Positions 1-7,663 of a DNA stretch of 7,663 nt are shown one piece after another (the first letter of the stretch is position 1; each line of letters starts with the position of its first letter). Position numbers and translations under genes: made by a program. The notes beneath the pieces are model-generated. The model was not told the origin of the DNA. It was given only the letters and a program-made list of their open reading frames with translations, and did no database searches. This DNA is from a virus (lineage: Duplodnaviria > Heunggongvirae > Uroviricota > Caudoviricetes). Location of the stretch: the IMG/VR virus record IMGVR_UViG_2778261534_000005; one strand, given 5' to 3'.

Positions 1-30
1 CAAGCCATAGGGAGGTGTAGAGAAACCGTT

Positions 31-72
31 AAGGTGTCTGTACAGTTACATCTTAAACAACCATCACAGTGA
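31..72. repeat. Copy A of a degenerate dispersed repeat (aaggtg ... agttacatcttaa ... acagtga)
   Basis: The 13-mer agttacatcttaa at 44..56 recurs exactly at 319..331. Both copies are preceded by aaggtg (31..36 and 313..318) and followed by acagtga (66..72 and 331..337). Copy A carries short insertions relative to copy B. Confidence 0.55.
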
Positions 73-312
73 TGTCAAATAGTTCTTTTAAGAAGGGAGG
101 GTTCTTTCTCATGTATCACCCTCTCTTCCCGTTAAGTAAGCTACACAGACCTAGAGAACATGCTCTGTAACACCTTCACAAACATTGACTAAGGTCAACT
201 TCATAAACTCAGAGTTAAGTTACCTTGAAAGATTTTACCAAGAAACTACACAGGTGTTATTTAGTCTGACTGTGAAGGGATATTTAACGGGAGAGAAAGT
301 AACGATATACCG

Positions 313-337
313 AAGGTGAGTTACATCTTAACAGTGA
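313..337. repeat. Copy B of the same degenerate dispersed repeat
   Basis: Same motif order as copy A (aaggtg, agttacatcttaa, acagtga). Flanking sequence is also loosely alignable: gttaagtaag occurs at 131..140 and 451..460, and aagaag-gaggg-like runs follow both copies. Confidence 0.55.
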
Positions 338-411
338 CTGTAAGAGATACCTGAAAAGATACTTAACAGAACTACCAAGAAGAGAGGGAACGATAAGACC
401 AGAGGTAGTGA

Positions 412-424
412 CCTGTTAAACAGG
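412..424. repeat. 13-bp palindrome CCTGTT-A-AACAGG
   Basis: 6-bp arms are exact reverse complements around a single central base, inside the repeat-rich noncoding block. Confidence 0.5.
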
Positions 425-845
425 CTGTTTCAAAGTCTCTTAAGAAATCTGTTAAGTAAGGGCTATGTGACCAATATTACCATTTTGTCAATGCTTTTGT
501 CTTTGACCTAAATCAATAAAATGTATCGTTTGATATGCTTTTAAACAAAATGGCTAAAAAATCTTTTTAGAGGGGCGCTTCGCTTGTGTCACCAATATAT
601 TCTTCCCTGTCTAAGAGGGAAGTTACAGGGACATTTCAAAGCCCTCAATAGACAAACCGAGGAACACGGGAAACCGAGGGAAGAAAAATCTATTGTGATT
701 GCCTTGAACAAGGTCTGTAAAGGTCGTTTAAGGGGTCGGTTAAGAAAGGAGCTTCCCTCTCTGGGGTTATCGCTCTTCTCTCGCTTAGTGGATTGATTAG
801 GGGTTGTGTTATACAAGCCCAACTAAGAAGACCTCTGAAGTTTCC

Positions 846-1035
846 CTGTGAAGAAGCTGAACAGCTATTATATATGGCTAATTACAACTAATTGAAAAAT
901 AAGCATTTTTAGAAGTTACTGTTAAGGTTACAGAGTTGTCTGTGAAGAGACTTGTCAGTTCTCTATATATGGCTAATTACAACTTATTGAAAAATAAGAA
1001 CTTTTAGAAGTTACTGTCAGAGAGGTGAATACTTG
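846..1035. repeat. Imperfect tandem duplication of a ~94-bp unit (846..939 and 940..~1035) with a near-identical 54-bp core
   Basis: Both units start with ctgtgaaga. The cores at 869..922 and 964..1017 (tatatatggctaattacaac-N-attgaaaaataag...ttttagaagttactgt) differ at only about 3 positions; the flanks are more diverged. Confidence 0.8.
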
Positions 1036-2397: not shown

Positions 2398-2670
2398 ATG
2401 AAGCAATGGCGAGATGATATTAAACGGTTCTTTGCAACTTACTTCATGATTAATTACGAAACAGGAATGCTTGAATGGATTGATGGCGGAGAGGTTAAGA
2501 CAAGAGATGATGCTTACGGTAATCCAATGATTCGTTATGGCACTCGTGATTATTATGTGAAGTATGTCATCTGGTTTTTGCATCATGAAGTTCAGGCAAC
2601 TAAAAAGATTATCTTCAGGGATGGTAATAAAAGAAATTGCCACCCAAACAATTTGCTACAGGAGGTTTAA
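2398..2670 (+). CDS. HNH_3-like (homing-endonuclease-related) small protein, 90 aa; canonical catalytic His not evident
   Basis: AGGAGG at 2385..2390 with 7-nt spacing; starts 2 nt after the upstream stop. The C-terminal IIFRDGNKRNCHPNNL (nt 2608..2655) matches the DGNK-N...NL core of HNH_3-type endonucleases, but Phe-Arg sits where His-Ile is usual. Confidence 0.7.
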   Translation: MKQWRDDIKRFFATYFMINYETGMLEWIDGGEVKTRDDAYGNPMIRYGTRDYYVKYVIWFLHHEVQATKKIIFRDGNKRNCHPNNLLQEV

Positions 2671-3056
2671 TGTATGACTTTTATAAACATCGTGACCATT
2701 TGGTAAGATTTGACGGTAAAGTCTGGAAAGACGTAACACAAACCAATAAGCCCAAGTTTACCCACCAGCAATTAGCCTCAAGATTTGATATCTGGACTGA
2801 AGCACAAAAAGATAATGGTGATTTCGAGTTTATCAGGGGTTTTGATTATGCTTACGAAGACGACCTTAAAGACGCCATTAAATTAATTGAGAATTTCAAC
2901 TCTATTAAAAGTGGTGACAAGCACAAAGCCAATGGTAACAGATACGATAAAGATTTAATCATTGATGCAATCACCAAAGGACAATCACAAAGTTATATTT
3001 CTGAGAAATACGGTTTATCACGCAGTCAATACTACAAGATTAAAGCGTCTGTGTAA
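2670..3056 (+). CDS. Putative DNA-binding protein, 128 aa, with a C-terminal recombinase/invertase-type helix-turn-helix
   Basis: The ATG at 2670 overlaps the upstream TAA (TAATG); GGAGG at 2661..2665. The ORF track starts this frame at a TTG at 2637, but the ATG with its Shine-Dalgarno is the more likely start. The C-terminal SQSYISEKYGLSRSQYYKIK resembles HTH_7/Hin-type helix-turn-helix motifs. Confidence 0.7.
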   Translation: MYDFYKHRDHLVRFDGKVWKDVTQTNKPKFTHQQLASRFDIWTEAQKDNGDFEFIRGFDYAYEDDLKDAIKLIENFNSIKSGDKHKANGNRYDKDLIIDAITKGQSQSYISEKYGLSRSQYYKIKASV

Positions 3057-3517: not shown

Positions 3518-3594
3518 TGACGTTAATTGTATTATGGACGCTGTTAGGCTTATTTGTTGGCTGCATTATTAACAATGCGGTAAATAAGAATTGA
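3517..3594 (+). CDS. Small hydrophobic peptide, 25 aa (MTLIVLWTLLGLFVGCIINNAVNKN), possible single-pass membrane peptide
   Basis: Absent from the ORF track (too short). The ATG at 3517 overlaps the upstream TAA (TAATG); GAGGG at 3505..3509 with 7-nt spacing. Hydrophobic core followed by a polar basic tail. Confidence 0.4.
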   Translation: MTLIVLWTLLGLFVGCIINNAVNKN

Positions 3595-3618
3595 TGTTAC
3601 CAATCTGTTAAAAAGCTG

Positions 3619-3647
3619 TTGACAAATAACCTTAAGCATGACATAAT
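3619..3647 (+). promoter_or_regulatory. Sigma70-type promoter (TTGACA-17-CATAAT)
   Basis: Perfect -35 TTGACA at 3619..3624, 17-nt spacer, CATAAT at 3642..3647. Confidence 0.5.
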
Positions 3648-3656
3648 TTTAATTAT

Positions 3657-3684
3657 AGAGAGAATTGCTCTCTTATTTTTTTTT
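3657..3684 (+). terminator. Hairpin plus T-tract (intrinsic-terminator-like) just downstream of the promoter
   Basis: agagag (3657..3662) pairs with ctctct (3668..3673), loop aattg, followed by tattttttttt (3674..3684). Confidence 0.5.
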
Positions 3685-3817
3685 CAACAATTCCATCTAC
3701 ATCTAGGGATAGTTATTCTGAAAGGTGCAATGCTTTTCGCTACATGGCCTCTTATATAACCTGAGAGGTCATCTCGAAAAGTCTTTGTTCATTCATTATT
3801 GAATCCTTTACAGCTTT

Positions 3818-3856
3818 GCCCTAACTCATGATTAGGGCGTTTCTTTAAGAGTTTTT
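3818..3856 (+). terminator. Hairpin plus U-rich tail (terminator-like)
   Basis: gccctaa (3818..3824) pairs with ttagggc (3832..3838), 7-nt loop, then gtttctttaagagttttt. Confidence 0.4.
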
Positions 3857-3915
3857 AAACAGAACTTTTAAAGAAAGTTTTTCCTGAAACTTCGTTAACG
3901 TTAAAGCAAACCTTC

Positions 3916-3960
3916 AAAGCCCTTCACAGATGAGGATGAACCTATGTTTAGGGCTTTTTT
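3916..3960 (+). terminator. Hairpin with a large loop plus T-tract (terminator-like)
   Basis: aaagccct (3916..3923) pairs with agggcttt (3950..3957) around a 26-nt loop; the T run extends to 3960. Confidence 0.35.
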
Positions 3961-4070
3961 CAGCTTTTAAAAAGCATACTTGGCAAACGCCTTTTAAGCC
4001 TCTTCTAAGTTCGAGGATGTCAGGTGTGCTTTTTAAAAACTGAATATTACTTAGAAGAGGAAATGAAATA

Positions 4071-5099: not shown

Positions 5100-7277
5100 A
5101 TGAGCAAATTCACAGTTGATAGTTTTATCGTTGAGCTAGGCTTCAGCGAGAACGTTATTAAGGGCTTGCAAAGAGTTGAAAAGGCAGCTTTGCAGTCAGC
5201 ACAAAGAATTGAAAAGAACCTAAATAAAGGTTTCAGGATTAATACAAAGCAGCTTGATAGTAATTTAACGACTTCTTTAGGGCAACTTGAAAGGAAGTTT
5301 AATAAGACCTTTGACAAGATTGAACAGAGAGCAAGAAACACAAAAGTTTTCCGTTTCACAAGTCAGGTTAATGACGCTATTAATCCTCCAAAACAACCAA
5401 GACAGCCACGAATTAGCGGAAACAGAGCAATCACAGCAGCTTATTCAGCGAATATGAGCAAGCTAAAAGGCTTTGACCCTATTTTGCAGAAATACATCAA
5501 ATCTCAGTTTTACGGGCTATCTGCTAAAGCTGGGTCAATGGATAATTCAAAATTCAATGAGAAGCTGGCTCAGTTAAACACTTCAGTCAGAGAAGCAATT
5601 GCTAAAGCCAGAGGTCATACATCCACCAGCATTAACAATACAAGCGACGCATTTAATAATCTTGCAAGCAATGCGATTAAATTATCTGGTGCATTTTACT
5701 CTGTGATGGGTGCTCTTAACGCTTACAAGGCCATTATGAATGCAGGTCTTAAACGAGATTCCGCACAGAGAGCCGCTAAGTTTGTACTTGGTGATAAAGC
5801 ATCTGAAGCTGAAACATTTATCAGGGGACTGGCTGACAAGACAGGTCTTAATATCTCTGAAGGGCTATCAAGCTACGCTAAGTTTGCAGCAGGTGCTCAG
5901 GGTTCTATGTCACAGGAACAGACACAGGAGCTATTTGGTAATGCAACGGCTATGAGTCGCTTAATGGGGCTTTCTAACGACGAGCTAAACGGCATTCTGA
6001 AAGCATTTGAGCAGATGGCGAGCAAGGGCAAGATTCAAGCTGAAGAGCTTCGTGGGCAGTTAGGTGACCGTATGGCTGGTGCATTTAAGCTATTCGCTGA
6101 AGCATTGGGTATGACTGCTACAGAGCTTGATAAAGCGATGAAAGACGGGAAGATTTTAAGTAGTGATACTCTCCCTAAAGTCGCTAAACAGATGGGCTTG
6201 ATGATTGATAAAGCGGGTGGTTGGGCTGAAGTCGCTAAGAGCACTCAGACAGCTTTAGGTAAGTTAGCAAACAACTGGGATGACACGATGGTGAAAATCT
6301 TCTCAGGTTCACAGGATGAGCTAAATGGCTTCTTATCCAGCCTGAGTAACCTGCTTAGTGAAATGGGTATGAGTTCTTCTATCGCTGGTGATGCTATCGG
6401 TGGACTTATCGACATGCTTAAAGCTGGTGTAGATGATATCCGTATCTTTAACAATCACATTGAAGGCTGGATTTTACAGACTAAGAAGTTCTATTACAGC
6501 CTTGATGACACTAAACGAAAACTACTTGATGAAGTCGGTGATGGTTTTATCAATTTTGTCAAAGGTCTTGCTATAGCGTTATCTGCAAAGACGCTATTCA
6601 GTGCTACTACAGGGGTTATGAACCTGACAAGAGCAATCACAACGTTAGGTACAAGAGCTAATCAGGTGGCTGGTCAGGTAGCTACTGGTAAAGGTGGTGG
6701 AAAACTGAAAGGTGTAGCTGGTGGTGTAGGTAGTGCTCTTGCAATTGGTTATGCTGATGACGGTTATGAAACAGCGTTAGCATTAGCTTCAATGATTCCA
6801 CAAATCAGAGGTGTCACTCTTGGTTTATATGCATTGAAGAAAGCACTGGATTTTATGAATCAGGAAGTAGTCAAAAACGCTAATATGCATCCATCTGGGG
6901 TAGGTGTGGGTAGTGACTTTAATCCTGTGTATTCTGGTGACCCTAATAAACCGAATGTGATTAACGAAGGATGGAGTAGAATTTTTAGTTCAATGGGTGA
7001 ATTGTTTAACAATGCCACAATGAATATTGCAAGATTCAATCATCCAGAATTGATTACCATGAAACAAGATGCATCATTAACGAGCACTGACATCCAAAAT
7101 CTAAGAGATGAAATTAGTGCTTTGAGTAAACGTATTCAGGAGCCAGTGAAAGTTTCACTTGGTGGTGAAGTTGCCATTAAACCAGATGAAACCAGCTTTA
7201 TGACCTTTAGCAGTAATATCTACGACCAATATGCAGAAGCTACGTTATTAAGTTCATCATTCCCAGAAGATGATTGA
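5100..7277 (+). CDS. Phage tail tape measure protein, 725 aa
   Basis: AAGAGGTGA ribosome-binding site 8 nt upstream. Residues ~291..366 (nt ~5970..6197; LSNDELNGILKAFEQMASKGKIQAEELRGQLGDRMAGAFKLFAEALGMTATELDKAMKDGKILSSDTLPKVAKQMG) match the conserved tape measure domain pattern. Long Ala/Gly/Leu-rich helical-looking protein with a Gly-rich segment at residues ~526..549. Confidence 0.85.
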   Translation: MSKFTVDSFIVELGFSENVIKGLQRVEKAALQSAQRIEKNLNKGFRINTKQLDSNLTTSLGQLERKFNKTFDKIEQRARNTKVFRFTSQVNDAINPPKQPRQPRISGNRAITAAYSANMSKLKGFDPILQKYIKSQFYGLSAKAGSMDNSKFNEKLAQLNTSVREAIAKARGHTSTSINNTSDAFNNLASNAIKLSGAFYSVMGALNAYKAIMNAGLKRDSAQRAAKFVLGDKASEAETFIRGLADKTGLNISEGLSSYAKFAAGAQGSMSQEQTQELFGNATAMSRLMGLSNDELNGILKAFEQMASKGKIQAEELRGQLGDRMAGAFKLFAEALGMTATELDKAMKDGKILSSDTLPKVAKQMGLMIDKAGGWAEVAKSTQTALGKLANNWDDTMVKIFSGSQDELNGFLSSLSNLLSEMGMSSSIAGDAIGGLIDMLKAGVDDIRIFNNHIEGWILQTKKFYYSLDDTKRKLLDEVGDGFINFVKGLAIALSAKTLFSATTGVMNLTRAITTLGTRANQVAGQVATGKGGGKLKGVAGGVGSALAIGYADDGYETALALASMIPQIRGVTLGLYALKKALDFMNQEVVKNANMHPSGVGVGSDFNPVYSGDPNKPNVINEGWSRIFSSMGELFNNATMNIARFNHPELITMKQDASLTSTDIQNLRDEISALSKRIQEPVKVSLGGEVAIKPDETSFMTFSSNIYDQYAEATLLSSSFPEDD

Positions 7278-7373: not shown

Positions 7374-7663
<290 letters not shown>

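Follow-up and report, generated by a model that had tools for sequence, protein, structure and literature searches.

The DNA analysed here (the window) is a 7,663-nt stretch of IMG/VR record IMGVR_UViG_2778261534_000005, which is classed among the Caudoviricetes. The window is part of an island that lies in the 5′ end of wrbA and that measures 11,259 bp (11.26 kb) in locus L015 (18565-29823). Its left part is a gene-free block (1-1137) with GTTAAG at 7/kb and with no coding sequence annotated in complete genomes; the Prokaryotic Genome Annotation Pipeline gives no gene under the block in most genomes, and we regard it as non-coding. Full islands have some 350 bp more of it on the left, as far as the gene for a small serine recombinase. 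From 1559 onwards the window contains rightward open reading frames (ORFs) encoding small proteins, a small HNH nuclease, a tape measure protein of 725 residues and a Dit-like baseplate protein, of which only the start lies in the window. Our subject is the repeated hexamer GTTAAG, which the block has in common with the genome ends of Felix O1-like phages (Felixounavirus).

The insertion point is the first 30 bases of wrbA, where the island supplies a new gene start (MARILVLYYSM for MAKVLVLYYSM); in two annotated genomes the locus lies between ymdF and wrbA. There the island begins with the small serine recombinase (182 residues), about 1.9 kb of gene-free DNA and five or six small genes. ORFs of 236 and 67 residues come next, then the genes for the tape measure and the Dit-like protein; the last gene before wrbA, read from the other strand, encodes a large serine recombinase. 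This recombinase is the enzyme that integrates the island into wrbA. An 11,233-bp metagenome contig has a 55-nt terminal overlap and both island ends joined with a 10-nt att overlap, and two further metagenome contigs cross the same excision junction (island ends and junctions are represented by loci L040, L034, L056 and L064). These joined ends indicate that the island excises as a circle, the closed form of which was seen once, as one metagenome contig (L040, whole contig). A 23-kb contig, OOBX01000469.1, has two copies of a conserved 25-mer of the block, and its loci also cross the excision junction, which may mean that it is tandem or concatemeric DNA.

The window is not a free phage: in complete E. 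coli genomes it matches chromosomes only. Of 5,426 such genomes, 438 (about 8%) have the gene-free block, in every case on the chromosome, and E. albertii has it as well. E. coli strain MS 196-1 is one bearer of the island. A plasmid or phage-plasmid was considered and rejected, there being no match among 72,556 plasmids, and a 33-mer from the window has no exact match in IMG/VR. A larger prophage was also considered. Tail-fibre and baseplate genes upstream of the island in locus L003 at first seemed to be its own; since homology to the island begins only 71 bp inside its left end, they are assigned to a neighbouring element. Some variants carry a gene for an N6-adenine DNA methyltransferase inside the block (NZ_CP182387.1 and NZ_CP100895.1; loci L044, L053 and L062), which is then 1.5-1.7 kb long. 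In the literature searched we found no description of this island, of satellites of Felix O1, of islands in wrbA or of the motif.

An exact search places GTTAAG on the plus strand at 28, 131, 214, 451, 739 and 921, and its complement CTTAAC, which marks copies on the minus strand, at 327 and 362. All eight sites listed in the initial annotation of this DNA are present, but two of them, given there as 223 and 336, were misplaced by 9 bases; the extended contexts quoted with them are correct (GTTAAGTAAG at 131 and 451, AGTTAAGTTA at 213). The density is 8.6/kb in 1-930 (eight sites) versus 0.9/kb in the remaining 6.7 kb (six sites); the block does not differ from the rest of the window in base composition. 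The whole window has 14 sites, whereas 200 dinucleotide shuffles gave 5.2 on average and never more than 12. For the block (1-1137), an order-1 Markov model predicts 1.2 sites, and none of 5,000 simulations reached eight (P<2e-4); an order-2 model predicts 1.8 (P=8e-4). An order-3 null is uninformative, as a model trained on 1.1 kb reproduces the sequence's own words.

Since GTTAAG was picked after the sequence had been seen, the window on its own is only suggestive. Some hexamer reaches eight copies in 12-21% of Markov simulations of the block (a family-wise P of about 0.1-0.2), and some 8-mer reaches four copies, the count of CTGTTAAG, in 5-9%. CTGTTAAG is the commonest 8-mer of the block, and other groups of words are enriched there at least equally (AGGGAA/AGAGGG/CTTCCC and AGTTAC/GTTACA). 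The enrichment of GTTAAG is confined to the block: other segments of the island have 0-1.8/kb, including gene-free stretches of 536 and 573 bp, with the one exception of an 82-bp end segment that holds a single copy, and the host flanks of the island have 0.5-0.6/kb. An equal frequency in coding DNA had been named beforehand as grounds for discarding the observation; we looked at this, the enrichment proved local, and the observation stands.

Homologous blocks provide a test of individual sites. We gathered 46 of them from IMG/VR, GTDB genomes, complete E. coli genomes and metagenomes, and aligned the 35 that are distinct. These are mosaic and 78-92% identical, and their GTTAAG density ranges from 2.8 to 9.7/kb (mean 6.3/kb). 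The hexamer is present at 327 (minus strand) in 35/35, at 451 (plus) in 33/35, at 921 (plus) in 27/34, at 362 (minus) in 26/35 and at 739/740 in 25/35. In other lineages fresh copies are found at other positions, namely 726 (16/35) and 610 (17/35), the latter not in this window, and it is through such gains that the density stays at 2.8-9.7/kb.

All four of the best conserved sites (327, 451, 921 and 362) carry the longer word CTGTTAAG. The copy at 327-334 on the minus strand, read as CTTAACAG on the top strand, is the best conserved of all, though its surroundings are variable. The copy at 362-369, also CTTAACAG on the top strand, is replaced by CCTAAA in one island lineage. The plus-strand copy at 449-456 is followed by TAAGGGCTA and closes a mini-array (413-456, plus strand) of four units exactly 12 bp apart: CTGTTAAA at 413, CTGTTTCA at 425, CTCTTAAG at 437 and CTGTTAAG at 449. 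These units are kept in outline among the homologues; one of the four is a perfect CTGTTAAG, and the other sites of the window are 35-288 bp apart. The plus-strand copy at 919-926, in the context GTTACTGTTAAG, lies in the first copy of a 54-bp direct repeat. The GTTAAG at 739 belongs to a tandem repeat on the plus strand (722-747; unit of 12-13 bp, GGTCGTTTAAGGG / GTCGGTTAAGAAA) that is present in one to three copies among the homologues; in locus L015 the hexamer is stepped by 13 bp (20718, 20731 and 20744).

Three plus-strand sites are different. The one at 28-33, in the context CCGTTAAGG, is variable (9/14 homologues that cover the position), and those at 131-136 (3/21; 2/8 in a smaller set) and 214-219 (8/31; 1/8 in the smaller set) are unconserved. 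In a nine-sequence alignment only 24-33% of the hexamers in 1-460 are identical across homologues, a low background above which 327 and 451 rise clearly and 28, 131 and 214 do not. Conservation at these last three is no higher than around them, and they may have decayed or arisen by chance; for 131 and 214 this is probable. The reading of the sites as an iterated protein-binding site is partly supported, in a sharper form in which (C/T)TGTTAAG is the functional unit and about half of the eight sites matter.

A 2.3-Gb phage collection contains only one stretch of DNA that resembles the block. Window positions 368-435 (50-70 nt) match five Felixounavirus genomes at 80-87% identity (E=6e-6), and the matching stretch lies in a 1.6-kb gene-free gap that holds the physical genome ends of these phages. 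For phage Pr103Blw, a 581-bp direct terminal repeat (DTR) was called by its authors with PhageTerm (PMC8303462). Several other phage records start at the same base as Pr103Blw, and SeKF_63 has an exact 613-bp repeat at both ends of its record with boundaries identical to those of Pr103Blw. The Felix O1 genome paper inferred short terminal repeats and does not describe the repeats of this region; in the literature searched we found no description of the repeat architecture of the DTR or of how the ends are recognised.

Units of CTGTTAAG, TTGTTAAG and TTGTTAG crowd the phage terminal region, often at a spacing of 10-11 bp. The interior of the DTR has roughly 20 phased (C/T)TGTTA(A)G units, including 11 exact GTTAAG. 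In Pr103Blw this amounts to 19/kb in each 581-bp copy of the DTR, followed by 7.9/kb in the next 631 bp (five sites) and 0.68/kb in the remaining 86 kb (59 sites). The genome-wide total of 86 agrees with a Markov expectation of 64-89, and the concentration is therefore purely local. The four hexamers most enriched in the terminal 1,212 bp relative to the rest of the genome are TAACAA, CTTAAC, TGTTAA and TCTTAA (P from 1e-14 to 1e-17), which are overlapping pieces of (C/T)TGTTAAGA. This ranking of phage hexamers is unbiased and recovers the same word, which removes the problem of post hoc choice. The enrichment of GTTAAG is confirmed as real, because it recurs in 35 homologues, is confined to the block and was recovered independently in a Felix O1-like phage.

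The phage copies are also ordered by orientation. At the left end of Pr103Blw the copies at 6, 17 and 28 face leftward, and the copies from 401 to 569 face rightward; the spacing is mostly 10-11 bp or a multiple of it. The DTR begins with GCCCCCTTAAC and ends with GTTAAGGGCTACC in both Pr103Blw and SeKF_63, and an outward-facing GTTAAGGG lies 5-7 bp inside each boundary in both the 581-bp and the 613-bp repeats.

The block is related to this region in several patches. A core at 327-435 (plus strand) is homologous to the DTR interior, matching Pr103Blw 208-318 at 70% (E 1e-9); its strongest part, 374-419 (AGAGAGGGAACGATAAGA..AGAGGTAGTGACC), matches 255-303 at 84%, and both matches fall inside the DTR. 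Around the core, the units at 327 and 362 face leftward on its left side and those at 413 and 449 face rightward on its right side, as in the phage DTR. The 200 bp that follow the small recombinase gene in full islands, upstream of the window, match the right DTR boundary and its flank at 64% (E 8e-15), the flank being a promoter-like stretch. Window 15-45 has a weak match in phage DNA that lies rightward of the DTR, and window 915-935 matches Pr103Blw 869-888 at 86%. The context of the 921 site, GTTACTGTTAAG, is also found in the phage terminal region, and the TAAGGGCTA that follows the site at 449 is comparable to the GTTAAGGGCTACC at the right DTR boundary of the phages. By sequence comparison, the GTTAAG sites of the block are copies, part conserved and part decaying, of the (C/T)TGTTAAG(A) word that fills the phage DTR and the adjacent gene-free DNA. 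The earlier proposal of an iterated site for a DNA-binding protein fits the conserved CTGTTAAG copies, which flank the DTR-like core as the one part of the block recognisably homologous to the phage terminal repeat, and the phased arrays of the phages, but it may not extend to the three unconserved sites.

A second link between the island and these phages is found in the tail genes. The tape measure gene (5100-7277, plus strand; PHROG 4036, E 4e-96) is of the Felix O1-like type; over residues 1-499 its product has 34% amino-acid identity to its Pr103Blw counterpart, and two patches of the DNA are 75-78% identical. The 5′ part of the Dit-like baseplate gene (7434-7663, plus strand; Dit_like Pfam domain, E 8e-19) includes a 206-nt stretch, 7458-7663, that is 95.6% identical in nucleotides to Pr103Blw 30312-30517, which points to a recent exchange between island and phage; the Dit protein of locus L015 has 70% amino-acid identity to the phage protein. 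Among the islands (L014, L015, L040 and others), tape measure alleles are 44-95% identical and Dit alleles 59-100%. This divergence suggests repeated exchange with different phages. Of the island proteins, only these two have homologues in Pr103Blw, and none of the small proteins has one in the motif-sharing phage.

The tape measure and Dit-like genes are the recognisable virion genes of the 11.26-kb island, in which no matches to capsid, portal or terminase genes were found. No island ORF matched a Rep, primase or helicase family. The small HNH nuclease is encoded by all island variants, and ORFs of 184, 92 and 107 residues occur in nearly all. Searches of the island proteins against PADLOC, NCBIfam, Pfam, PHROGs and PDB sequences gave no function beyond HNH, tape measure, Dit and recombinases; the 92-residue protein is faintly similar to DndE.

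We hypothesize that the motif is bound by a protein of Felix O1-like phages that acts at their genome ends, and that the island keeps a reduced set of the sites so that phage proteins process or package its DNA or are diverted; we put the probability of this reading at about 0.4. The putative binder would recognise (C/T)TGTTAAG. It would most likely belong to the end-cutting and packaging machinery, a role favoured by the position of the outward-facing GTTAAGGG, 5-7 bp in from either end of the DTR. Candidate phage proteins include a 66-residue ORF immediately before the large terminase gene (Pr103Blw 16576-16776), the large terminase itself, HNH proteins and early proteins. The sites retained by the island could serve as a cis-acting handle through which proteins of an infecting phage process or package island DNA; alternatively, they could draw these proteins away from the phage. 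The likely partner of the sites is a Felix O1-like phage, not a protein encoded nearby in the island.

Several points weigh against this hypothesis. The DTR homology covers little DNA (some 110 bp at 70% and some 200 bp at 64%), its pieces are not in the phage order, and the island's homologue of the right DTR boundary, upstream of the window, has GTGACG in place of GTTAAG. The sites in the window are scattered and are phased only in 413-456, unlike the dense arrays of the phages, and three of the eight (28, 131 and 214) are unconserved. Once the post hoc choice of the word is corrected for, the enrichment is not significant in the window alone. No known phage carries the block, judging from the 2.3-Gb phage collection and from the 33-mer in IMG/VR. 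An 11-kb genome would underfill a head with a capacity of 88 kb, and no capsid-resizing gene was recognised in the island. Known satellites, moreover, keep the packaging site of their helper almost unchanged.

The block has other features of its own. The 54-bp direct repeat mentioned with the 919-926 site (869-922 and 964-1017) is 94% identical between copies, which are 95 bp apart and begin with TATATATGGCTAATTACAAC. Their ends differ, being CTGTTAAG in the first copy and CTGTCAG in the second; in homologue L002 the sequence is present only once, and the region is otherwise highly conserved. Between the mini-array and this repeat, about 130 bp (460-590) are near-invariant in all homologues, with 71% of hexamers identical versus 24-33% around them. 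This stretch is more conserved than the island's genes, is A+T-rich, and contains TTGTCA and TTGACC hexamers and the palindrome CTAAAAAATCTTTTTAG; it has no convincing promoter.

At the left end, a sigma-70-like promoter on the minus strand (78->50, TTGACA-17-TAAGAT) is kept as TTGACG-16-TATAAT in a divergent variant. It faces left into an 8-nt repeat of variable copy number (ACCnnACC on the top strand), the end of which forms the first bases of the window; beyond the repeat, on the minus strand, a hairpin and then a T-run were seen by eye. The whole feature spans window 1-78 and about 350 bp upstream, as seen in L003 8108-8433 and L015 19650-20000. The minus-strand product could be a small, G-rich RNA some 200 nt long, for which there was no match in Rfam. 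Nearby (window 95-170), an ATG at 111 starts an ORF of 19 codons that spans the GTTAAG at 131, and 9 nt ahead of this ATG is GGGAGGG, a strong ribosome-binding-like sequence. The ribosome-binding stretch and the ATG are kept in divergent variants and the peptide is not, and the ORF could be a leader peptide or nothing.

A coding role for the block was considered for the ORFs at 185-319, 584-796 and 589-822, which have no family matches. It was rejected because the short ORFs of the block are broken in homologues by frameshifting indels and by changes in the copy number of the 13-bp unit. We also considered recombination sites for the adjacent small serine recombinase. By eye, the pair of AAACCGAGG at 655-680 looks like a gix half-site, but the other half agrees at only 6/12 positions, and the candidate was rejected. 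The motif as a -35 element was likewise set aside: its reverse complement contains TTAACA, but the arrays have no -10 elements at the right distance by eye.

To the right of the block, a 62-residue ORF on the minus strand (1326-1138) is membrane-like, with the hydrophobic centre MVNLPPELGSPDVWAGGGVGLIAGLLL.... All island variants have it, at 73-95% conservation; a terminator-like hairpin comes after it (1123-1100), and it has no family match. A second gene-free stretch of 550 bp (3520-4070) precedes the 236-residue ORF. A TTGACA-type promoter lies near 3620 in this stretch, and several hairpins, each with a T-run behind it, were seen by eye. The stretch is not enriched in GTTAAG and looks like a leader controlled by termination.

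Among the alternatives to a site for a phage end-acting protein, the least unlikely, in our view, is that the block is a relic. It would have come from the terminal region of a Felix O1-like phage, and its GTTAAG copies would be drifting leftovers without present function. Such decay is consistent with the three unconserved sites, with the patchy and rearranged phage homology and with the absence from the block of the phage's dense phased arrays. However, the sites at 327 and 451 are near-invariant amid fast change. Copies have been gained in other lineages and the 13-bp GTTAAG unit varies in copy number, with the density maintained over the 35 variants, and the island is intact, excisable and widespread.

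It is also unlikely, if conceivable, that the motif binds a phage or host initiator, in which case the block would be the origin of the excised island and the DTR arrays the origin of the phage. The 10-11-bp phasing of the DTR repeats and the four 12-bp units at 413-456 resemble plasmid and satellite origins such as P4 ori/crr and that of the PLE satellite. The island has no recognisable replication gene of its own, so one would be borrowed through a cis site, and the 23-kb contig with two copies of the 25-mer, with loci that cross the excision junction, is perhaps tandem or concatemeric. Yet no initiator gene adjoins the block, no DnaA boxes were seen by eye (which is not a rigorous search), and an outward-facing motif at both DTR boundaries suits the cutting of ends better than the firing of an origin.

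Improbable, too, is a set of operators for a regulator of the island, for example the conserved 92-, 107- or 184-residue protein, that would control promoters of the block and would also target phage DNA. There are promoter-like sites in the block, among them the conserved one on the minus strand at 78->50, and the three candidate ORFs are present in nearly all variants, the 92-residue product having its faint likeness to the DNA-binding DndE. These proteins, though, have no homologue in the phage that shares the motif, and the conserved sites overlap predicted promoters in no consistent way. The initial annotation had proposed adjacent helix-turn-helix or ribbon-helix-helix candidates for a binding test. 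A helix-turn-helix binder is unlikely, as the sole such ORF (139 residues, 2637-3056, weak Pfam match) is missing from most variants that keep the sites.

A signal at the level of RNA has considerably less in its favour. The block would be transcribed, and (U)UAAG words would lie in helices or in ribosome-binding-like (UAAGGAGG-like) stretches of non-coding RNAs or leader peptides. RNAalifold on 29 sequences found 6-7 base pairs changed on both sides in 590-800, and also a long-range helix of CUAAGAGGGA (about 611-620) with UCUCGCUUAG (about 779-788), and purine-rich stretches follow several sites (GTTAAGAAAGGAG at 739, TTAAGAAGGGAGG at 88). On the other hand, the best conserved sites (327 and 451) show no covariation, no convincing promoter would drive 100-1100, and the phased arrays of DNA sites in two orientations at the phage DTR boundaries are left unexplained. 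Rfam covariance models gave no match to the window at E<=1 and only a spurious microRNA match in the whole island; with ARAGORN or Rfam, no tRNA or known RNA family was found in the window, the whole island or the phage gap. The same region, 590-800, may also form a hairpin of AGGG (627-630) with CCCT (642-645) that shows a G-C to A-U swap, and a local pairing of CTTCCCT (602-608) with AGGGAAG (616-622), with a second CTTCCCT at 752-758.

Chance or base composition, by which A+T-rich non-coding DNA yields some hexamer of high count, is largely refuted and very improbable. The simulated frequencies of any hexamer at eight copies or any 8-mer at four, and the equal enrichment of other words in the block, are what such an account can draw on, but the same word is enriched in the 35 homologues and not in the other non-coding segments of the island, it was found independently in the homologous phage region (P about 1e-15), and the block has the composition of the rest of the window. 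The initial suggestion of a retained restriction/modification target can be dismissed: some island variants do carry the N6-adenine methyltransferase gene within the block, but GTTAAG is asymmetric, a word under restriction pressure should be depleted rather than clustered in one non-coding block, the phage genome as a whole neither avoids nor favours it (86 versus 64-89 expected), and we know of no enzyme of this specificity.

Beyond the question of the sites, the island may itself be an undescribed satellite-like parasite, or a mobile defence element, of virulent Felix O1-like phages that uses reduced terminal-repeat sites. We consider this broader idea possible but doubtful. Under it, the island's own tape measure and Dit proteins would build or sabotage tails. 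Of the properties of satellites, the island has its own recombinase, with integration and excision, and shows no capsid, portal or terminase matches. As to a packaging signal, patches of the DTR interior and boundary are 64-84% identical and differ in order, the boundary GTTAAG is lost, and CTGTTAAG is shared. The only hints of induction by a helper and of transfer in its particles are indirect, namely the 206 nt at 95.6% DNA identity to a phage and the one circular contig.

Among known satellites, P4 carries the cos site of P2, and SaPIbov5 and EcCICFT073 carry cos sites of their helpers; SaPIbov5 also depends on a phage HNH nuclease. Like these elements, the island is small and integrative and has no recognised capsid or terminase genes. 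Its non-coding stretch resembles the genome ends of one phage group, and a small HNH nuclease is present in all variants. The island differs in that its candidate partner is virulent and packages DNA with a DTR, whereas theirs are temperate cos phages. In addition, its similarity to the phage is short and rearranged rather than near-identical, and it carries tape measure and Dit genes.

Sites for the small terminase subunit that are iterated beside a cut site are familiar from the R sites of lambda cosB and the pac boxes of SPP1. The motif of the Felix O1-like phages is likewise iterated and phased, and it lies at both DTR boundaries where cutting occurs, a likeness that holds for the phages only. 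In contrast to those systems, the binder in Felix O1-like phages is putative, and the island sites are few and mostly unphased. In T7, arrays of short repeats flank the terminal repeat, and their role is only partly understood. The short-repeat arrays of Felix O1-like phages are likewise at or near the DTR boundaries of a phage that cuts concatemers at fixed sites, with different sequences and in a different phage family. Repeats at origins offer another comparison, such as the octamer TGTTCACC of P4 ori/crr, which is bound by the alpha protein. As in plasmid and P4 origins, the block has a short asymmetric word many times in non-coding DNA, partly at helical spacing; unlike them, it comes without a cognate initiator gene in the island, its copies face both ways around a core, and the phage copies are at genome ends.

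The PLE of Vibrio cholerae is a satellite of the virulent myophage ICP1 and encodes an initiator, RepA, that binds its repeats. The island is similarly compact, integrated by a large serine recombinase, excised as a circle and linked to a virulent myophage, and it has a large non-coding region that bears repeats; it differs from PLE in having no recognised replication gene and no sequence relationship. Felix O1-like phages are classic typing and therapy phages of Salmonella and E. coli. Their phased (C/T)TGTTAAG arrays, with an outward-facing GTTAAGGG inside each boundary, provide a concrete candidate for the end-recognition signal of this group, and if the island is indeed a satellite or defence element, (C/T)TGTTAAG would be that long-unknown signal. 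If the island does not exploit or block these phages, the two would still offer a clean example of an iterated site that is conserved in a phage as well as in a chromosomal element. If it exploits or blocks them, it would be the E. coli counterpart of PLE and ICP1 in Vibrio, with a bearing on host range in phage therapy and on how satellites of virulent phages arise.

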